NCBI RefSeq assembly: GCF_016433145.1
Contig: NC_058135.1
Coordinates: 279,931,875 to 279,995,874 of the forward strand
Length of the DNA stretch: 64,000 bases
Direction: 5' to 3'
Source of the DNA: Gracilinanus agilis
Lineage: Eukaryota
Shown piece by piece: positions 3,050-53,740 of this stretch. The position numbers were made by a program, and so were the translations under genes. Within the stretch, counting starts at the first letter, position 1. The number at the start of each line of letters is the position of its first letter. The notes under the pieces were generated by a model. That model saw only the letters and a list, made by a program, of their open reading frames with translations, did not search any database and had not been told where the DNA came from.

Positions 3050-4296
3050 AGCCATTTTGAAAAATGTGTCCAAAATGACAAATATAAAGAGGAAAATCAT
3101 AAACCAATTAGGTGAACATAAGATAGTATACCTGTCAGATCTATAGGAAAAGGAAGGAATTTAAGATGAAGTAAGAGATAGAGAACATTACAAAATGTAA
3201 AACGAATAATTTTAATTATATTAAATTTAAAAGTTTCTGAGCAAACAAAACCAATGCAAGTAAAATTAAAAGGGAAATGACAAATTCAGGAAAAAAATTT
3301 TTATAACAAAAAGGCCTAATTTCTCAAATTTATAAGGAACTAAGTCAATTGTACAAAAAATCAAACTATTCTCCAATTGACAAATGGTCAAGGGATATGA
3401 ATAGGCAGTTTTCAGATAAAGAAATCAAAATTATCAATAAGAACTTGAAAAATTGTTTTAAATCTCTTAAGAGAAATGCAAATTAGAACAATGCTGAGGT
3501 ACCACCTCACACCTATGAGATTGACCAATGTAATAGTAGAGGAAAATAATAAATATTGGAGGGGTTGTGGCAAAATCCAGACACTAATGTATTGCTGGTG
3601 GAATTGTGAATTAATTGAGACATTCTGGAAGGCAATTTGGAATTATGCCCAAAGGGCTTTAAAAGAGTGCCTACCTGTTGATCAAGAAATAACACTGCTG
3701 GGTTACTATCCCAAAGAGGTGATAATGAAAAATACTTCTTCAGAATATTCATAGCCATGTTCTTTGTGGTGGCAAAAAATTGGAAAATGAGGGTGTGTCC
3801 CTCAATTGGGGAATGGCTGAACAAATTGTGATAACTGATGCTGATGGAATACTATTGTGCTGTAAAGACTGATCTGGAGGCTTTCTATATGAACTGGGAG
3901 AACCTCAGTGAACTGAGGCAGAGTGAAATGAGCAGAATAAGAAGAACATTGTACACAGAAAGTAAAATATTGAGGAAAAATCCAATGTAATGGATTTCGC
4001 TACTATGAGAAATGCAACAACCTAGGACACTCCTGAAGGATTTATGTAAAAGGATGCTATCCACATTGAGAGAAAGAACTATGGGAGTATAAATAAAAAT
4101 GCAAAACATATGACATCACTTATCACATGTATATATGGATATGTGATTTAGGGTTTAGGCTTTAAAAATAGCTCTGTAACAAAAATGAATAATATGGAAA
4201 GAGGTGTCAAGTGATAAAATTTGAACAACCCAGTAGAATTGTTTGTCCACTCTGGGAGTAGGGAGGGAAGAGGGGAGGGGAAAAATGAATCATGGA
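3050..4296 (+). mobile_element. L1 3' fragment (ORF2 C-terminus and 3'UTR) running into a gap
   Basis: Degraded translation MQIRTMLRYHLTPMRL...WRGCGKIQTLMYCWW is typical of the L1 ORF2 C-terminus. Confidence 0.85.
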
Positions 4297-4459
4297 NNNN
4301 NNNNNNNNNNNNNNNNNNNNNNNNNNNNNNNNNNNNNNNNNNNNNNNNNNNNNNNNNNNNNNNNNNNNNNNNNNNNNNNNNNNNNNNNNNNNNNNNNNNN
4401 NNNNNNNNNNNNNNNNNNNNNNNNNNNNNNNNNNNNNNNNNNNNNNNNNNNNNNNNNNN
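4297..4459. other. Assembly gap
   Basis: Run of N. Confidence 1.
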
Positions 4460-4749
4460 TCCTCCATGTTTGGCTTATTCTAAACTACTAACTCTGCAAC
4501 TCAATCTGTATTCTAAGAAAAATGAAAGATCAAGATTCATTCTTCAACTGCAGAATCAAAAGTCCACACAGGATTAATGTTCTCAATCGCCAGGTGTTAC
4601 AAAGCATACCATTGATCAAGAATTTTTTCATCAAGTTTCCTGTTAATTCAGGGTCTGTCTCACGTGCTCCAATGAGAAAGAATCTAGGTCAGTGAGAGGC
4701 AACTATTGCACTTTTGGAATTATCTCTTTAAAAATCAAACAAGCAAACA

Positions 4750-4945
4750 AAAAACCTCTTACTTTCTGTCTTAGAATCAACACTGTGTACTGGTTTCAAG
4801 GTAGAAGAATGGTAAGAGCTTGGGCATAGGTGTTAAGTGACTTTCCTAGGGCTATACATCTTAGAAATATTTAAGATAAAACTTGAATTCAGGATCTTCC
4901 ATCTCTATGCCTGACTCTCTACCCACTGAACTATCTACCTGCCAC
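4750..4945 (-). mobile_element. Opossum SINE1 (diverged)
   Basis: Reverse-complement match to the other SINE1 copies. Confidence 0.8.
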
Positions 4946-6719
4946 AAGGATTGCTCTCTTTAAGATTTTTATCCTAAATGGCCTACTTAAATTTAGATTT
5001 CCAGAACAGGAAATCAAAGGGCTTCACTAGTCAAAGATATCCACTGCTGCCCTACTTAAGGGGAAATATCCTTTGACAACGTTACTCTTGATTCTCTGTT
5101 CTTGCAACCTTGAAAGTCACATTATTTTAAATTAAAGGGATCATTGACCTGAGCATTTGCTTGCACATCATAGTCTCCTTTTTAACCCTGTTTCTTCCCA
5201 ACACTGAATCTCAGCTATGGTCTAGATAAGAAAAGAATTTCTCACAATATAGCCTGGGACTTCCTGGGTACCTGAGACACTTTCAAGGAGTTCACAAGGC
5301 TGAAAATTTTTCATAATAATATAAAGGCATTCAATTTCTTTTAAAAATATCAACAAATACCACCCACACCAACCCAAGTTCTTTGGGGGTACAAATAATT
5401 TTTAAGATGATAAAGGAGTCCTGAGGCCATAAAATCTGGGAAACTGATCAAGAATATATATCCCTTCTGGTACTAACAAACTATACCTTTGAACTCCGGA
5501 GAGGTGAGTATGCCTAAGAAAACACATAAATATCTACAATCTATCAAGTGCTGTCCCAGTGTCAGAGTCTGATCTAAGAAAAACATATTGAGTAGATCTA
5601 TAGGGACTGACTAGCAACTGTAAAATTAGACTATGCCCACAGAAAACCTGACAGTTAATATGGTTAATATACATAAATATTATGAAGTTGACATAAGGTA
5701 ATATTTGCTAGGTGTTTCAGAAATGTCAAAATTCTAAATATTATTTATTTACTCAATATACCTGATTATTTATCATGAAAGGAACAGAGGATATGATACC
5801 AATGTCTCTTCTTTATGAGCAGTAAGGATCATGAAAAGAAGTTGTTTATGAATATAGCACTCCTATCATCATCATTATTATTATACTTATATATTTTACA
5901 TATATTCTCTAGCATGTTGATTGCTATCCCCATATTAAATTCTAGACTTTTAATTTCTCTTGCATAATGTTAATCTCATGGTCTTGAAGTAATGGATTTA
6001 AATTCATTCATAATTAATAGGTGAATGTTTCATGTATGGAATCTCTGTATAAAAGCTTTGGATTGAGAGAACAACCCAAGAAGGAAAGAAAAGGTTGTGT
6101 CCTAAAAGTTTAGGCAATTGGGCATAAAAAAAAATGTTAGATGAGGACCCTGGATAGAAAGTGAACAAGTCACAAGTGAGTGGAGTGTTGTGTTCATAAA
6201 CATCTTCTCCTCTCCATGGTCCTGATTACTCATAAAAACACTGTTAACACACCCTCTATTCATTTTATGATAAAAAAGATATACTGAGTTTGCATAGGTG
6301 TTGAGGTTTTTAGAGATAATCTACATGCTTTTCTCTATGCACCATGACTCTTTCTGTTAAACCAAATTTACTAGAAGTTCCTCTGAAAAGATAAATTTCA
6401 TTACATAAGAGAATCAAAAACACAACATATCAAAAGAATCAATCAGTAAACATTTATTAAGCTCTGATTTTCAACCATGGTACTTGATTCTGGGAATGCT
6501 GATATACTCAATTTCAATATCATGTTTTTAAAAAATTAAAATCTATGACCATCTGTGAGGAGAGGATAGAGAATTTATGTCTGAGTGTTAATCTATCATC
6601 AGCAAAGCAAGAAGAGAGTGGTAACTCTCCTTCATTTAATCTGACTGAAGAACAAACCCAAGATGAAGACAAGTATTAAGGAATAAATCCCATATAGGAC
6701 TTAATGTGCCACCTAGCTG

Positions 6720-14000: not shown

Positions 14001-14339
14001 GGAACTCATGGATGTATTCAGATATTGTTGTTAGGGCTTCTCTGTGGTACAGAGAGCATATGGCTGCTCTCAAAGGAGAAAAGAAATCAGGGCCATGAGT
14101 TCACTAGGTATAGAACTGATAGAGCCACCTCATGGACAAAAGGAAAACATGCAAGTGATGAGAAAAGTCCCTTGGGCCCCAAGCACATTGCCTTCTTAGA
14201 ATGCAGTTTTCATCTATTTGTCTTGTTGAATGAAAATAACAAGTGAGGTAGGGACAATGTATGCAAAGATTTGACTGACTAATAATTTTACAGAGTAATT
14301 AATGACAATGATGCAAGAAAGAAGAAAATAAATTAAATA

Positions 14340-14785
14340 GAGTGCAATTCTAATGGGTTGGCCATGCCATTCCAATGGCAAATACATGATTTCCTAAAAA
14401 GAGAATTTCACAGTGAATTCACATAAGGCAAGCACTCATTCAAAGCCTAGAAGAAGCAAAATAAGAACACTCTCCAGGTCTCTCAGAAGAATTTTAGTAT
14501 CTGCTGTGAGATATGGGAGGTGTCCAACATGGCAAGTCTACATCAAAGAACATGGTGTTTCATGAGCAAATCAGAATCACAGTAGTTAGTACAAAGGAAA
14601 CATGAGATGCACAAATCCAGAGACAGCTCCATTCCGCATGTTCAAACTGACTATTTGTGTCTGACCTGTGGCTCAGTCCCTACTGAGCTAATATGGAGTG
14701 GATTAGTCAGTCAAACACACTATGCCTTGATCCCAACCTCCTGATGTCATTGATCCTCTTCAAACAATAAATAACAAACAAAAGC
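14340..14785 (+). mobile_element. RTE 3' remnant, paralogous copy of the same insertion as 33170-36708
   Basis: Matches 36115-36708 and ends at the same junction (ccatagccatg...ctagaac) in psi1. Confidence 0.85.
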
Positions 14786-15435
14786 CATAGCCATGTAATG
14801 ACTAGAACATGGTTGAAAATAGAGGAAGATTCCTATTCCACAGAATACGAGGACTGATCTGAGATGGCTTGCTGGTGGCTTTCAGGAGGATAGGTTCTCA
14901 TGATGGTTTCAAAGATGATTAAGAGTACTTGTAAGACGATAAGAAGGGCAAAAAACTCATTGATTTACACAATATACTAAACCAGTTACCGAAGTATATC
15001 TCAGACCAGGGGAAAGTTGTGAGCGCAATAAAGTAACAGAAAAAGTTATATACCACTTTGGAACTACAGAAGAAAAAACCCCAAAAGATCATCTGTGTAT
15101 ATGGAGGAACTCATAAAGTCATAAACACAAAAAACAATGGCCAAATTAGGAAATCTGCTTAATGCCATGGTAGTGGTACAAAGGAGTATCTTATAATAAT
15201 AATATTATAATATAATAATAACATAATAAAAATTACATAAGATCATAGATGAGGAGAAAAATTTTAGAACTGAAAAAGAAAACAAGTAAAAAAAAAACAT
15301 GTCCATTGTAGGAAATCCATTGTAGCAAATGACTTGTTCTCCATGAAGAACCAAGTTATCAGTATTGCAGTAATGGCTAGAGTAGTTAAAATCCATAAAG
15401 AGATATTACTGAGCAAAAAGTGCATAAGTGTAAGG
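14786..15435 (-). pseudogene. OR5B-like pseudogene fragment psi1 (TM2 to ECL3), frameshifted
   Basis: Minus-strand translations TLMHFLLSNISL (~[12 protein letters not shown]), DFNYSS...VICYNG...MFFF (~DLGYSS...[14 protein letters not shown]) and SSSIYTDD (~SSSIHTGN). Truncated by an RTE 3' end at ~14785; the N-terminus is replaced by LTR-like and L2 sequence. Confidence 0.85.
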
Positions 15436-32266: not shown

Positions 32267-34583
32267 AGGTGAGTTTATTCTAAGGCAATTGACTCCTAAT
32301 TCTAGCAATTACATGTTCAATTTTGGTCAAATGAAGGACTATTCAAGTTTTCTTCATTCTTTATTATGCCTCCAACCTGCTTGACTTTCACAAATTCTTC
32401 ATAAGAGCTAAGTTAAAAATCCGATCTCAAAATCAAACACTCTCAGAGGTAGGAGCAACTCTAGATATCGCTGAGTCTGGTTCATACTTAAACAAGATTT
32501 CCTTTACAATGAGAGGGACATAATGGAGATAGAATTGCCAAACAGTAGTCTAATCATCACTGTCAAACCAAAACAAAAAATGTGGATGAGAAGTATATTA
32601 ACATAGATTCCCATAGCATTAAAGGATTATTATTCTCAAGTCACTTAATAGTTTACTTGCCCAAAATCATATAATGAGTGAGTAAAATATGCACATGGGC
32701 AACTTCCTACATTCTGCATCATGCACCTTTCTACTGTGAGAGCTGATCTAAAGTTTCCTCAGAGAGCTGAATTGAGATATTCTGAACTTCAGAAATGATC
32801 ATGAAGTGGGGATTAGTTATGAGAAATGGTTCAAATTTCACAAACTCCTATATCTGCAAAGTCAGTTATTGAAAAGCTATAGGAAATTATGCTTCTGAGA
32901 TCAGGAAGGAAAGAAAGGATTCAGCATCTGTGTTCTATGGAGGCTAAATATAATGTGAGTCTTAAGAGAGTTAGTGCACTAGGAAAATATAAATGTAGAG
33001 AATGTATTTTTTAATGTATGCTCCTTACTTAGAAGTATAAGCCTAATGATGATTTTACCATCTGGAAATTTTAATGAAAACACTCTTTATATCTTTATTC
33101 CTGAAGCTATCAATTAGAGGGCTTAATACTGAAATGACCATGAAATAGATATCTCTATAACCATGAAATTGATTAAGCACTGGATGACAGACTGTTGAAA
33201 ACAGTGAAGTGTTCTTCCCATCTCTCCAGGATTGAGTCCTCATCATTGATAAGTTTGCTCCATCAGTTCTAAGTAGTTGAGATGTCCAGAGGTCTTTAGG
33301 ATCTAAATAGTTCTCAGGGAATTATAGAAGTGTTTTGGATTATTTTTTATTTGTGGGAGGCTGAATCTCATCTACCTTCTTACTGAGTCTGGAATCCTGA
33401 ATATCCCTAGGCTTCATTTCCATTTTACTCTGGATGGAATTAAGGGCTGCCTTCTTAGAGAGAGATGAACTGTTCTGCTGGTAAACCCTGTGGAGTTCTC
33501 ATTTTCAACTAAAAGCTTTTGAATTTCTCCATCATTTTCATCAGAGCAATCCTGATATTTATGAGTGATCTATCCTAGAGGAGCAAATACAGTGCTATAT
33601 ACCATGTCTCTGAAAGTTATCCAATCCTTTTCTGCTCCACTGTTGTCAGCTATGCGCTAACTCAACCTTCCCTCCATGTCAGCAATAAACTGTTCATACA
33701 CAGAGAAGTATTGAAGTTAACCCCCCTTCAGTTGTACTTCCAATTGAATAATACATATTGAATACCATTATGTTATTTTCCTGTGGCAAAACACCTGGTG
33801 TGATTTTTATCCAAGTAGAAATTTACAGTAACGGGGAATCTACAACTCATATAAATATTTTTCTGGGTTATATGGCAAAAGGAGATTATCCCCAGAAGAT
33901 CACGGATGTTTCCATTGTTCATCTCTACAAAGTAAAAGGAAATAGATTGCCCTGGAAAGGTCTCTTTCTTAGTCATTTCTGGTAAGATTCTTGCCATAGT
34001 CCTCCTTAACCAGCTGATCCTTCACCTAGGAGATGGTTTTCTGCCTGAGAGCCAAACTGGCTTCAAAAAGGCTTCAAAAAAAGTGGTCAACATGATGCTC
34101 AATTCACAACAATTCCAGGAGAAATGCTAGGAGCAGAACAGAGGTCTGTACAGAATGTTCATCACCCTCACCAAAGCCTTCAATATTATCACTCATAAGG
34201 GTTTGTGGAAGATTATGATGAAATTTTGTTACCTGGAGAAGTATGTCAGTATTGTATGCCATTCTCATGGCAGCATGCTTTTATTGGTTATGGATGAAGG
34301 ATGAGGTTTTAAGGCTTTCCTGGTTATCAGTGGAGTGAAGCATGGCCTTATCCTTGGAATGATGCTTTGTGTGATATTCTCATCCTCTTTAACAAGGATG
34401 AGAACAGCATAAGGGTTACCTACTGCACAGATGGCAAACCATTTAACTTGAAAAGGTGACAAGTCAAGACTAAAGCCCCTGGAGAGTTGACACAAGACTT
34501 TCTGTTTGAAGATTATTGTGCACCCAGTGTGGTCTCTGAGACTGAGAGGAAACAAAATATGGATTAATTCTCTGTAGCTCATG

Positions 34584-35426
34584 TGTTATATTGAATCTCT
34601 GGGAGCTTGAAGTTCACCTTTGATTGACAAATAAGTCAGTTGGATGGAATGTTCCCAGGGAAGTCATGCGAGAGACAGGAGGAGGGGCAGTTGAGAACCC
34701 TGAAGAGTTCTGGGTCTTTGACCTGGGCTGAAGCTGGAGATCGGTGGATCCTGGTCTTGGAGTGAGAGGGTGCAAACATCTCTCTGCAAACTCTTCCTGT
34801 ACTTGAGATACCATTTCAACCTCTACCTGACCACCACCTTGGTGTCTACTGCCCCTAGCTATTAGGAGTTTCATCATCTAGATATCTAGGTTTCCCAGGG
34901 CCCGGGAGGGATCCGGGAAGTGGGCAGGAGACAAAGAAGAGGGTGGAAAGGGTGGACATAACTCAACTGTAAGGCTGAAGATCTATTGAAGAAGAAGTCA
35001 AAGATATCCCAGCAGTTTACCTACTCTGGTTTAGTCCTGGCCAGGATGAACCAGAGGGAAGCTACATTGATTCTTCATCTGCCAGCAGTTGAGATTTCAT
35101 TAATAACCATTAGAATAGGGTCTCCTATACCACAGTCCTTTACCCTTATCCTTCTTGTTTAATATAAAGTTTAAAGTACCTTCCTAAAGCAGTTTCAAAG
35201 CTTATTTTGGAAGGGAGAAATTGCAGTCAGAATACAAGTCGTAATCCTAGCTAAAGCCCAAATCAACATATCAATTAACCCCAGGTGGGTCCTGAAGGGA
35301 TATACCTCTTTGACCTGAAGGATCCTGCCTGGGCAACTGTTATAAGGGAGAAGGGTCATCTCATTTCTCTCTGTACATCATTTCTACCATCTCAAATAGA
35401 TCAAGAGACCTCCAATAATTATAACA
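34584..35426 (+). mobile_element. Solo ERV LTR nested in the RTE
   Basis: Termini TGTTATA...TATAACA and TSD CATG/CATA; the RTE sequence rejoins across it. Confidence 0.85.
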
Positions 35427-35874
35427 CATACTAATTTTTTCCTGATGACCAACCTCAGGATAACAGAGGTTCTTCACCAGTCAGAACCACATCATCCAAA
35501 CTTGGAACAATTGGTTACCATAAATGGAGAAATTTTGAATGCTGTAGATAAGTTCATTTGACAGTTTACTTTCAAGGGATGTCCATGTCAATGATGATGT
35601 TGATGCACACATCATCAGAGCTAGTTCAGCATTTGAGAGGCACCAAACAAAAGTGAGGAAAAGAAGAATTATTAAGCTTCATACCAAATTGACTGACTTC
35701 ATTGTTCTCTGCCTGTGGAATTCAGTCAACAAGTGCCATGCCAGAAAATTGAACCAATATCATTTGAAATGTCTTAAGAATATTCTGAAAATTATCTGGC
35801 AAGATATAGTACTGGACACTGAGTTTCTCTCTCAAGTTGTACTGCCAAACATTTAAACTTTCCTACAGGGAAAA

Positions 35875-36100
35875 TTAAAGTGACACAATGAATAGAGTAT
35901 CAGGCCTGAAATCAGGAAGAAATGAGTTCAAATATGGCATCAGACACTTACTAGTTGTGTGGCCCTGGGCAAGTTGCTTAACCCTGTTTGCCTCAGTTAA
36001 CTTTCTGTTAAATAAGCTAGAGAGGAAACTCCAAATAACTCCATTACCTTTGCAAAGAAAACTCCAATTGGGACATAAAGAGTTGGACAGAAGTGGGATG
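35875..36100 (+). mobile_element. MAR1/CORE-type SINE nested in the RTE
   Basis: gagttcaaat...cagacacttactag...gggcaag...ttaaccctgtttgcctcagt, plus an RTE-like tail. Confidence 0.75.
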
Positions 36101-36280
36101 ATAAAAATATTGCAGAGACTGCAACTCCAATGGACTGGACATGTTCCAATGACAATAACATATTTTCTTAAAAGACTATTTCACAGAGAATTCAGACAAG
36201 ACAACCACTCACATAGTGGCTTAAAGAATCAATGCAAGGATTCCTTCCAGGTCTCTGAAGAACTTTAGAATCTTTTGTGA

Positions 36281-36412
36281 TATGGAATTGTTCATTGGCT
36301 ATGGGAATGGGATAGGAGAAGGGAGAGAAAGAACATGAATCATGTAACCATGGAAAAATATTCTAAATTAATTAAATAAATAAAAGTTTTCGGGTTGGAA
36401 AATAAATAAATA
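36281..36412 (+). mobile_element. Short L1 3' tail nested in the RTE
   Basis: catgaatcatgtaaccatggaaaa plus A-rich tail. TSD AGAATCTWTTGTGA at 36267-36280 and 36413-36426; absent from the psi1 RTE copy. Confidence 0.85.
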
Positions 36413-39400
36413 AGAATCTATTGTGAAATATGGGTGATGCTATCACAGGTCTTACCAGGATGGCAGGCCCACATCAAAGAATATGTATATTCCTTGAACA
36501 AAGCAGATTTATAGAATCACAAAGAAAACAAGAGATAAACAAATCAAAATATATCTCCGTTCCAAATGTTCAAATGGACAATTTGTGTCTGACCTGTGGA
36601 AGAACATTTTGAACTAGTATGGGACTGATTAACCATTCAAATATACTGTTCCTTGATCCCAACATGCTGGTGCCATTGGTCCTCTTCAAACAAGAAGGAT
36701 GAAGAACCATAGCCATGAAATGCCTAGAACACATCTGTAAATCCCGATTCCTGTCCCACCAAACTTGAACATTGCTATGAGATGGGAATCACAAATGAAT
36801 AAGGCTTGTTGGGTTTTTTTTTCAGCACAACAGATTCTCATGATGATTTAGAAGATGAATAAGCAGACTGGTAAGATGATTAAAAAAAAGGACAAAAAAA
36901 GACATTGAGTCACACAATACCCCAAACAAATATACTGAGGTATATCTCAGAGTAGGAGAAAGCTGTAAGTACAAGAATGTAACTGAAAAAAAAATGAATG
37001 ACCACTTTAAAACTACAAAAAACAAAACCCAAGATGTCATCTGTGTAAATGGAGGAATTCAGAAAGTCACAAATATAGGAACTAATGGCCAAACCAGCAA
37101 ATATGCTAGATGTCATGATAATGTATACATTTTATGAAGCATCTTATATATAATAACTACATTTAGATCATAGCTCAATAGAAAATTTTAGATATGATAA
37201 GAGCCATAAGAAAAACAAACTGTACCATAAATCCATTGTAGGAAATGACCTGTTCCCCATGAAAAATACACACTGATATCAATTCAGCTCTAGACTGTCC
37301 TCATCTCTAGTATTCTCTAACCACTTATCATATGCAAGTTCTTGCACTGTCTAATCTCTGTCTTGCATTAGTCCTGCCATTCACTCATTTTTATTTGATT
37401 TGATAAACATTTATTAAATGTTAACTACATCCAAGGCACTGAACAGAATGCTCAGGAGATAAGTAAGAAAAACAAAGACATTCCCTTCCCACAAGAAGCT
37501 TACCATAAAATAAGGGAAGACAATAAACAAAAGATATCTGGAGAAGAAACAAAATGATGGTAGAGTCAATGGCATGATGGTGGTTATGATGATGAAGATG
37601 ATGAAGTCAAAACAAATGAAGTGGTTTGTGGCAAATGAGATGACTGAGATTTTGAGCCATTTATAAAGTGAGGCTATGGGGGGAAAAGTCTTTTCTCTTT
37701 ATTGAAACCTTCGATCAAAGGGGCAGAAGGTACTAGGAGTACTGATGGTTTGTCAGTATCAAAACTCATCTCAAAGATGATGAGTTACCTGATAATAAGC
37801 TTATTCTGGGTAAAGGTGAAGGGCATTTTGATGACAGAGATGGAGACAAAAATAGGAAGTGCATCTGGTAGGTGTTTTTGTTCCTATATAAGTGCTCCAG
37901 GTTGAAGCTGGAACAAAAAGTCACAAAAGAGTGCTGCTTGAATGCACTACAAAATCGAGGTTATTTAGCCTTAACTTGATGGCCTTCCTTTTATGCCTCC
38001 CTAATTACTTCACTATCCTTTCCACCACTGTAGATCTTCCAAACCTCTTCAGTGTTCCTCAGATCTTTAACAATTCCCCATCCCCTACCTGTTCAGCTGA
38101 GAATATAGGCTCATATTTTTCAGGAAAAGGCATTTAATTCATTCACTAAAAGTTACCTCTTCTATACCATCTCATATCACCCAGATGCTTTCTGCCATCC
38201 TCTCTTTATTTTCTTCTGTCTTAAATAAATGAATGTCCTTTTCCCTGTCAAAGAAAATCCCTCTAACATGCACCTGTTAACCCATTCCATCCCATCTTCT
38301 CTGGCTAGGAGGAAAAAGTTCACAGTAGCAAAAGCCACAAGTTAAAATTTATGCACAACAACATATCCCTTATATGAGATGACCATATTCCTTGTGTGAC
38401 ACCTCGTCATCACTCTGAGAGTAGAGCTAAAGAGTAAATAAAGTTTGACATGTGAGGGAGGGACTTAGATTAGCTGAAGAGAAATTCAAAAAGCCCTAGG
38501 AATGTGGATGTAGCCTTTTGACACCTCTTATTTCAATTAACTTAAGTAGTATGAATTCTTATCTCACATGGTCTGATGAGAGGCAATGATCTCAGTGAAA
38601 AAAGCCTCAAAGATTTTCCCCCATCTGAGAGCATGTAGCCCTGAGAAAAATGTTTATATGGAATTCTGTAGTTTATTTTCTATCACTTTTTATGTTTAGG
38701 GAATGAAATGTCTGACCATGGAATTTTCAAAAAGTCATGAAATTAAGCTAGAGGAATACAATAATTGAAGTTCATGCCAGATTTTGTAGTCATTTCATCT
38801 TTGATGTTCAGAGGGGCAAGGAACAATCTCTGAGAGTGACCTCCAGAGGTACATTTCAGGAAGAGATGAGAGGCAAAAATTCATCTCACAGCCCTCCTTC
38901 ATATGGATGAGAACTTGATGGGACCAATGGTATGTAAGAACTGAGCTAAATTGGAAGCTTGTTCTCCCAAGGGACTAAGATGGCATAGAGAGGATTGTGC
39001 TCTCCATATTCCCAGGGTATTTGGGAACATATTCATGCATTATTTTTCTTGCCATATCTTAGAAGCAAATATTCTGATGTAATAGTTGATCAATGACAAA
39101 TAAAAATATGGCACTAACCACTGGCTCATATCAAGATTTAACAGTTATAATTTCATACATAGTTAATAATTACATATTAAAGATTTGGGGTAAAGAAACT
39201 TTCAATTGATAAATTGAGAAAATCTGAGAAAAACAGAATGAGCCCTGATAGGAGATAAAATAGGGCAGAGAAATTGGACTTCTTCTAGTTATGAAGGAGT
39301 CTAGTCAGAAAGGTAACAAATTAAAAATGACTAAGCACCCCTGAGCAGATGGTTTCCTTGCTGAACAGTATCACCCAGGCATGGTCCTGACAACTAGTAA

Positions 39401-50089: not shown

Positions 50090-50285
50090 CCTAATAATGG
50101 CTTTTGCCTCTAGAAATTCTAATGGAAGTATTCTTAATATCTTTATTCCAGAAGCTATAGATGAAAGGACTCAACATCGGAAGGGCAATGAGGGAGAACA
50201 CTGATACCACTTTCTCTATAGTCATAGAATGGCTTCAGCATTGGATGATGACAACTTCTTGAGAATGCTGTGAAAATGATTAAAC
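50090..50285 (-). pseudogene. OR pseudogene remnant psi3 (TM7 and C-terminus only)
   Basis: Minus strand reads SHSMTIEKVVSVFSLIALPMLSPFIYSFWNKDIKNTSIRISRGKSHY*. It lies at the cassette position homologous to psi2 and carries no RTE. Confidence 0.8.
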
Positions 50286-50817
50286 CATCTTTTCACTGAA
50301 GCCCTCTATCAGAAGAAGAGAAGGAATTGGAGATGCCATGAGTTGTATCAAAACTCAACTTCATGATGATTGACCTGTTGATGAGCTTATCCTGTGTAAG
50401 AACAAGGGAAAATATGATGATGAAAGTAAAGACAAAACTGAGAAGGGCAGCTGATAGGTGTTTTTTGCTTCTATACATGTATTCCTTGTTGAAGGTGGAA
50501 AAAGAGTCACCAAACATTGCTGACTGAGTGCACAAGAAATCTAGCTTATATAACCAGAACTGGATGGCCATTCTTATGACTCCCTAATTATTTCACTATT
50601 CCTTTCACCAAAGCAGGGCTTTCAGAACTTTTCCTCAAAGTATATCTCAAAACTCTGACTCACTTCAGCTCAGAATAAGGCCTCGTATCTTATTGAAAAA
50701 ATTTGAAATAATTCGCTGAAGGGTACCTCTTCTACTTCATCTCACATCACCTGGATGCCTTATGCTATCATTTCTTTATTCCTTTCTTTCTTCATGAATG
50801 AATGTCCCCTTTCCCTG

Positions 50818-53316: not shown

Positions 53317-53740
53317 GTGTGTGTGTGTGTGTGTATGTATATATNNNNNNNNNNNNNNNNNNNNNNNNNNNNNNNNNNNNNNNNNNNNNNNNNNNNNNNN
53401 NNNNNNNNNNNNNNNNNNNNNNNNNNNNNNNNNNNNNNNNNNNNNNNNNNNNNNNNNNNNNNNNNNNNNNNNNNNNNNNNNNNNNNNNNNNNNNNNNNNN
53501 NNNNNNNNNNNNNNNNNNNNNNNNNNNNNNNNNNNNNNNNNNNNNNNNNNNNNNNNNNNNNNNNNNNNNNNNNNNNNNNNNNNNNNNNNNNNNNNNNNNN
53601 NNNNNNNNNNNNNNNNNNNNNNNNNNNNNNNNNNNNNNNNNNNNNNNNNNNNNNNNNNNNNNNNNNNNNNNNNNNNNNNNNNNNNNNNNNNNNNNNNNNN
53701 NNNNNNNNNNNNNNNNNNNNNNNNNNNNNNNNNNNNNNNN

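Follow-up and report, generated by a model that had tools for sequence, protein, structure and literature searches.

A 5′-inverted, probably RTE-type retrotransposon copy in an olfactory-receptor pseudogene of Gracilinanus agilis and its probable origin by twin priming

The 64,000-nucleotide (nt) stretch of the Gracilinanus agilis genome analysed here (NC_058135.1, positions 279,931,875 to 279,995,874 of the forward strand; hereafter the window) carries at 33157-36721 a retrotransposon copy whose 5′ part lies on the minus strand and whose 3′ part lies on the plus strand. This copy is one old insertion: its two pieces are adjacent in the element and both of its ends come from one target site. 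With a probability of roughly 0.78, the inversion arose at insertion by twin priming catalysed by the element's own protein. A preliminary description of the locus had proposed an RTE-type element inverted by twin priming, and our analysis supports this proposal; twin priming, and the role of the element's own protein in it, are what we infer from the data below.

Two adjacent pieces in opposite orientation

As reference we used the majority sequence of the family, a 3623-nt profile that combines 109 pieces from 77 loci (genome searched, 3.7 Gb). The inverted 5′ piece (33167-33710, minus strand) corresponds to profile positions 1225-1774, which run from 33708 down to 33167, and encodes residues 284-454 of the homologous protein P0007, a stretch between the endonuclease and the reverse transcriptase. 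The sense 3′ piece (33711-36708, plus strand) extends from profile position 1791, at 33711, to the profile end; it encodes residues 475-1060 of P0007, comprising the reverse transcriptase and the C-terminal region, and finishes in a short AAC/AACC-type tail with no poly(A). The first 1224 nt of the profile are absent, making this a 5′-truncated copy, and ~16 nt of element are lost between the pieces (~19 nt if counted from 33170), in agreement with the ~20 nt estimated previously. The inner, head-to-head joint (33708-33712) holds no foreign bases and 0-3 ambiguous letters, and flanking DNA was looked for inside the inversion and not found. In reverse complement, 33170-33710 occurs at no fewer than 39 other places in the genome (41 matches, among the best 40 of 436 candidates scored). 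Aligned to 19 loci of the same genome, 33183-33708 and the sequence from 33711 on fall on opposite strands in every two-part copy, so the proposed order of a minus-strand piece followed by a plus-strand piece of one element, with its coordinates, holds against these other copies.

The region 33710-36708 had been described as a single sense piece; its sense strand is indeed the plus strand, but three later inserts split it. The first (34584-35426, 843 nt) has 7-nt inverted ends of the form TG...CA and a 4-nt flanking repeat matching at three of four positions, and is presumably a solo long terminal repeat; a related copy lies ~76 kb left of the window. The second, recognised by alignment at ~35872-36107, is a high-copy short repeat that we take to be a short interspersed nuclear element. 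The third (36284-36412, plus strand) has an A-rich tail and a 17-nt flanking repeat matching at 15 of 17 positions, is absent from the paralog at 14326-14786, and is presumably an L1 3′ end.

Probable assignment of the element to the RTE clade

The family majority matches the 1070-amino-acid protein P0007 end to end, at 64-73%, and Pfam identifies the Exo_endo_phos and RVT_1 domains in this protein; in a natural copy of the family RVT_1 is matched at 1.8e-08. The coding match begins at base 373 of the profile, whose true 5′ end is supported by few copies, with no ORF1 ahead of the endonuclease. Homologs of 1030-1095 amino acids lie on contigs of 3.4-4.7 kb, and one of them is named craniofacial development protein 2-like, a name that we take to be linked to RTE. 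The L1 ORF2p is only distantly similar to P0007 (105 bits), and short AAC/AACC-type repeat tails are found among the 30 loci examined. A single open reading frame for an endonuclease and a reverse transcriptase, combined with a short repeat tail in an element of ~3-4.5 kb, is the architecture of RTE elements. The element is therefore likely a one-frame endonuclease/reverse-transcriptase long interspersed nuclear element (LINE) of the RTE clade, the clade being read from this architecture and not from a labelled tree. Seven stretches of other copies contained no relevant Pfam family, and one of the seven gave no match to a solved structure. A younger family with cleaner junctions was also sought, and the best of 149 other matches was only 68% identical to the query.

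Empty paralogs establish one target site

The element interrupts one olfactory-receptor pseudogene, both of whose flanks match intact neighbours. The direct repeat at its ends (33157-33169 and 36709-36721) is identical at 12 of 13 positions, and a third look-alike, likewise 12/13, lies at 33134-33146 in receptor sequence that is also present in the empty paralogs; similarity alone is thus weak proof of a target duplication. The paralogous receptor sites provide the proof. Eleven of 13 aligned sites are empty, and in these the left and right flanks of the element overlap on one single-copy stretch, so that the repeat is a true target duplication. Its presence was correctly given in the preliminary description; its length is 10-17 nt and not exactly 13, because the last seven letters are common to target and element. 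We place the 5′ copy at 33157-33173 (plus strand; 33157-33169 plain, with 33167-33173 common to the element as microhomology) and the 3′ copy, on the evidence of the direct repeat and the empty paralogs, at 36709-36725 (plus strand).

The two filled paralogs keep the 5′ junction and ~75 nt of the inverted piece, after which they carry a deletion. One is aligned at 50200-50295 (minus strand) and the other lies ~39 kb left of the window; both sites, the former as 50197, were candidates for empty sites and were left out of the empty count. A further paralog, aligned at 14326-14803 (plus strand), retains the last 450 nt of the element and the same 3′ junction. As the 5′ and 3′ junctions are shared with paralogs, the insertion and the inversion predate the local gene duplications.

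These paralogs also preserve the outer junction of the inverted piece. In both filled sites the order is target, then AATGGCT, then element in antisense orientation, and in the empty paralogs the seven letters read AATGGCT in six cases and AATGACT in five. AATGGCT complements the element majority at profile 1768-1774 (AGCCATT on the RNA strand), a site that varies among individual copies; the antisense majority contains two exact and seven one-mismatch occurrences of the motif in 3617 positions. Judged from these letters, the RNA at the priming site could have served as pairing partner for the 3′ end of the duplication, which is what twin priming would lead one to expect. This complementarity spans 7 nt in the two paralogs and five of seven in the window's copy, and another empty paralog, beyond the window, matches the 7-mer at only five of seven.

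Recurrence of 5′ inversions in the family

Inversion is a recurrent structure in this family, as 17 of 167 3′-anchored copies carry one at their 5′ end (10%, Wilson confidence interval 6-16%). The copies sampled are the top-scoring ones among 5648 and 468 candidates and need ~300-400 nt of sense 3′ end, so this figure is not a genome-wide rate. Three sets make up this sample. Set A comprises 28 of 30 loci (the window's own copy and a paralog dropped) with 1.5 kb flanks and contains five inversions, and set B comprises 27 of 30 loci (the query and two duplicates dropped) and contains three. Set C, 112 of 120 further matches with 5 kb upstream (excluding a duplicate and seven matches on small contigs), contains nine, or 8% when taken alone (4-15%). 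All 17 inverted pieces derive from element sequence upstream of the sense start, and in 15 the inverted piece adjoins the sense piece within 35 nt. The distance between the pieces in the element is at most 20 nt in six copies, 32 nt in one and 191-1594 nt in ten. The outer ends of some inverted copies look cut by later inserts.

The target duplication recurs as well. We searched for a repeat with one copy ending at the flipped end and the other beginning at the tail (score ≥7) at 19 inverted-type loci, namely 16 of the 17 counted copies (one lacks the full 3′ end), L230, and L224 and L225, which were identified through another anchor. A duplication brackets the flipped end in 10 of the 19, compared with 22 of 469 shuffled pairs (p 2e-8), and in these ten copies it begins -8 to +4 nt from the profile end. 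Its length in the other copies is 7-13 nt, with one of 17 nt. Duplications were also more frequent here than in non-inverted copies (10/86, p 2e-4), an excess that we do not take as biology because old non-inverted 5′ ends are often cut by later inserts.

Outer microhomology amounts to 5 nt in L239 and 2 nt in L131. In the independent inverted copy L172 the outer breakpoint lies within ~6 nt, in the element, of that of the window's copy (33167-33173); the coincidence may be fortuitous or may point to a favoured priming site. Several outer breakpoints are separated by no more than 13 nt; by a rough estimate this is near chance for ~20 events, and we do not propose a breakpoint hotspot.

Twin priming and the explanations that compete with it

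The twin-priming model was reportedly proposed by Ostertag and Kazazian in 2001 for 5′-inverted L1 copies, and descriptions of this route are nearly confined to mammalian L1. Applied to this locus, a bottom-strand nick would prime a first complementary DNA (cDNA) from the AAC-type tail, and a top-strand nick 10-17 nt away would supply a 3′ end that anneals to the RNA at profile 1768-1774 and starts a second cDNA of ~540 nt. The first cDNA would halt 16 nt short of this internal priming site, and the two cDNAs would be joined with little or no homology.

Several points weigh against this reading. The model is borrowed from L1 and is applied here by analogy. The window's own left junction has decayed, keeping five letters of the 7-mer, and a duplication of 17 nt would exceed the range of 7-15 nt cited for RTE in the excerpt available of PMC6007223. 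Among the other copies, the 191-1594 nt of element missing between the pieces in ten of the 17 inversions could also have been lost by deletion at a later time; nine of the 19 tested show no duplication at the threshold; and few have an unambiguous outer microhomology, its extent being 0-1 nt in L137, L144 and L210. Junction letters are moreover blurred, since the copies are ~15-22% diverged from the majority.

If the host's L1 protein had instead acted in trans on an RTE transcript, as it does for processed pseudogenes, twin priming would have taken place with another enzyme. The presumed L1 3′ end nested in the same element has a 17-nt duplication, and the duplication at the locus may also be 17 nt. 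Processed pseudogenes are inverted at 13% (3/23) in the part of PMC12016303 available. The hallmarks of L1 retrocopies, a poly(A) tail and a TT/AAAA target, were sought at the locus and in the other copies, and neither was found. The duplication follows directly after the AAC-type tail, no run of A behind the 3′ end exceeds 5 in any of the 19 inverted copies, as in non-inverted ones (over 105 copies, none is longer than 7), and none of the ten duplications starts with TT/AAAA as judged by eye. An old poly(A) decays, yet between the element end and the duplication there is no room for one, and we consider the action of L1 in trans very improbable.

A different route at insertion would start from only one primed cDNA; its 5′ part would have broken and been re-joined in inverted orientation by repair or template switching. 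The family seems prone to such events: large gaps separate the pieces in 10 of 17 inversions, and set C holds sense-sense gaps of >300 nt in 8 of 112 loci as well as the complex flips L121 and L230, which were excluded from its inverted count. Re-joining of this kind predicts neither a target 3′ end that, at the outer junction, is complementary to the RNA site nor a limit of 8 nt to the overlap between the pieces. We give this route an equally slight chance.

The complex and gapped copies are of some interest in themselves. L121 is otherwise collinear and carries at 3614-3800 (element orientation) an inverted duplicate of profile 2533-2718, without a 3′ end, between positions 1976 and 1983. 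L230 is doubly flipped at 3564-5353 (element orientation), with sense 1000-1233, inverted 2219-1039 and sense 3224 to the end, and ~6 letters are shared at its first joint. Sense-sense joins across internal gaps of 0.4-3 kb occur in L125, L129, L163, L175, L190, L191, L207 and L233 of set C, and also in L063, L067 and L119; such copies may be template jumps, later deletions or non-autonomous derivatives.

The least probable explanation is an ordinary truncated copy that was partly inverted long after insertion, or two independent fragments side by side. At a single locus the geometry would be identical, old copies gather rearrangements, and the family carries no subfamily signal by which the two pieces could be matched or told apart (81% and 78% to the majority; 30-32 copies, rho ~0.03). 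Against this explanation stand the outer breakpoint, which coincides with the duplication at this locus and in 10 of 19 copies, an inner joint free of flanking DNA, inverted pieces that never (in none of the 17) include their own 3′ end, and a single unlinked opposite-strand piece (70 nt, L150) in the 112 loci of set C with ~5 kb upstream. It is also unlikely as a general cause of the inverted copies.

Relation to L1 and other LINEs

For the published work compared here, statements refer to the excerpts available of each paper. In L1 twin priming the 3′ end of the second nick pairs internally with the RNA and primes a second cDNA, and the two cDNAs are then joined (PMC2912911). Like inverted mammalian L1 copies, those described here consist of a 5′ piece in inverted and a 3′ piece in sense orientation, joined head to head and bounded by target duplications, with microhomology at the outer junction; in human L1 microhomology of 2-5 nt is present in ~70% of cases (PMC2912911). 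The pieces lie within 20 nt in 6 of 17 copies here and in 46% of inverted human L1 (PMC12016303). In contrast to L1, the element has one open reading frame without ORF1 in front, an AAC-type tail in place of poly(A) and no TT/AAAA target, and its inversion rate of ~10% compares with ~31% (PMC2912911) or 18-22% (PMC12016303) for human L1, in samples that were not drawn alike.

Outside L1, a single inverted Nimb-2_DR insert from chicken DT40 cells is the one exception in PMC4245944, where all other inversions came from L1 in human cells. Its authors conclude that inversion requires L1 and factors of the human host, and they propose that pairing with the RNA calls for a second overhang of sufficient length. 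The Nimb-2_DR insert resembles our copies in coming from a non-L1 LINE with ~12-nt duplications and an inversion, and differs from them in being a single case from cultured cells, whereas the inversions described here recur often among the genomic copies of an element from a different clade. Duplications in this family are mostly 7-13 nt, compared with a peak of 10-12 nt for RTE cited in the same paper. Marsupial RTE LINEs, for which names such as RTE_Mdo appear in PMC4476161, share with our element an endonuclease and a reverse transcriptase in one frame and a short repeated tail; the only rearrangements that the excerpt of that paper reports for RTE are template-switch chimeras. RTE target signatures are described in PMC6007223, and in the available parts of that paper and of PMC5389967 inversion appears only within a reference. 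The Bov-B paper PMC13295347 makes no mention of inversion or twin priming. We found no report of a 5′ inversion in an RTE element in the literature searched, from which subscription journals are missing, and absence from print is not established by this.

The probable mechanism is a known one, in a host family for which it is little described. The locus contributes a target site proven by empty paralogs, a 7-nt priming match recovered in paralogs and an inversion rate for the family. It is an evenly balanced question whether twin priming is routine in RTE-clade retrotransposons, with a single protein priming both target ends in about one in ten insertions and without an ORF1 protein or poly(A). 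Were this so, the limit on inversion would be the length of the staggered cut and nothing special to L1, and flipped RTE copies would have gone uncounted so far in mammalian genomes, annotation counting many RTE insertions as two fragments. A one-frame, non-poly(A) element inverting at ~10% would separate the two ideas put forward in PMC4245944, dependence on L1 and overhang length; the L1 ORF1 protein and tail would then be unneeded, while a cut of ≥10 nt might be needed. Such an element would also offer a simple system for testing second-strand priming.

The receptor cluster around the element

The interrupted pseudogene belongs to a minus-strand cluster of olfactory-receptor genes arranged in tandem, represented in the window by four long frames, and Pfam 7tm_4 was found in both of the intact neighbour frames scanned (two of the four). 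No useful match came from a Pfam scan of nine open frames in the window. The 3′ part of the pseudogene exon lies at 33024-33169 (minus strand; alignment to intact receptors of the cluster) and is 13 nt shorter than its paralogs; the exon continues at 36709-37117 (minus strand), where 37116-36883 matches residues 159-236 of an intact neighbour. The inserted copy is a fossil, no longer active, and nothing about it points to a function. Intact receptor genes and pseudogenes extend over 9573-59526 of the window and 100 kb to either side of it; the receptor copies found ~10 to 50 kb to its left have the opposite orientation, suggestive of a block inversion. Runs of N are present at 4297-4459 and 53345-53740, both distant from the element.

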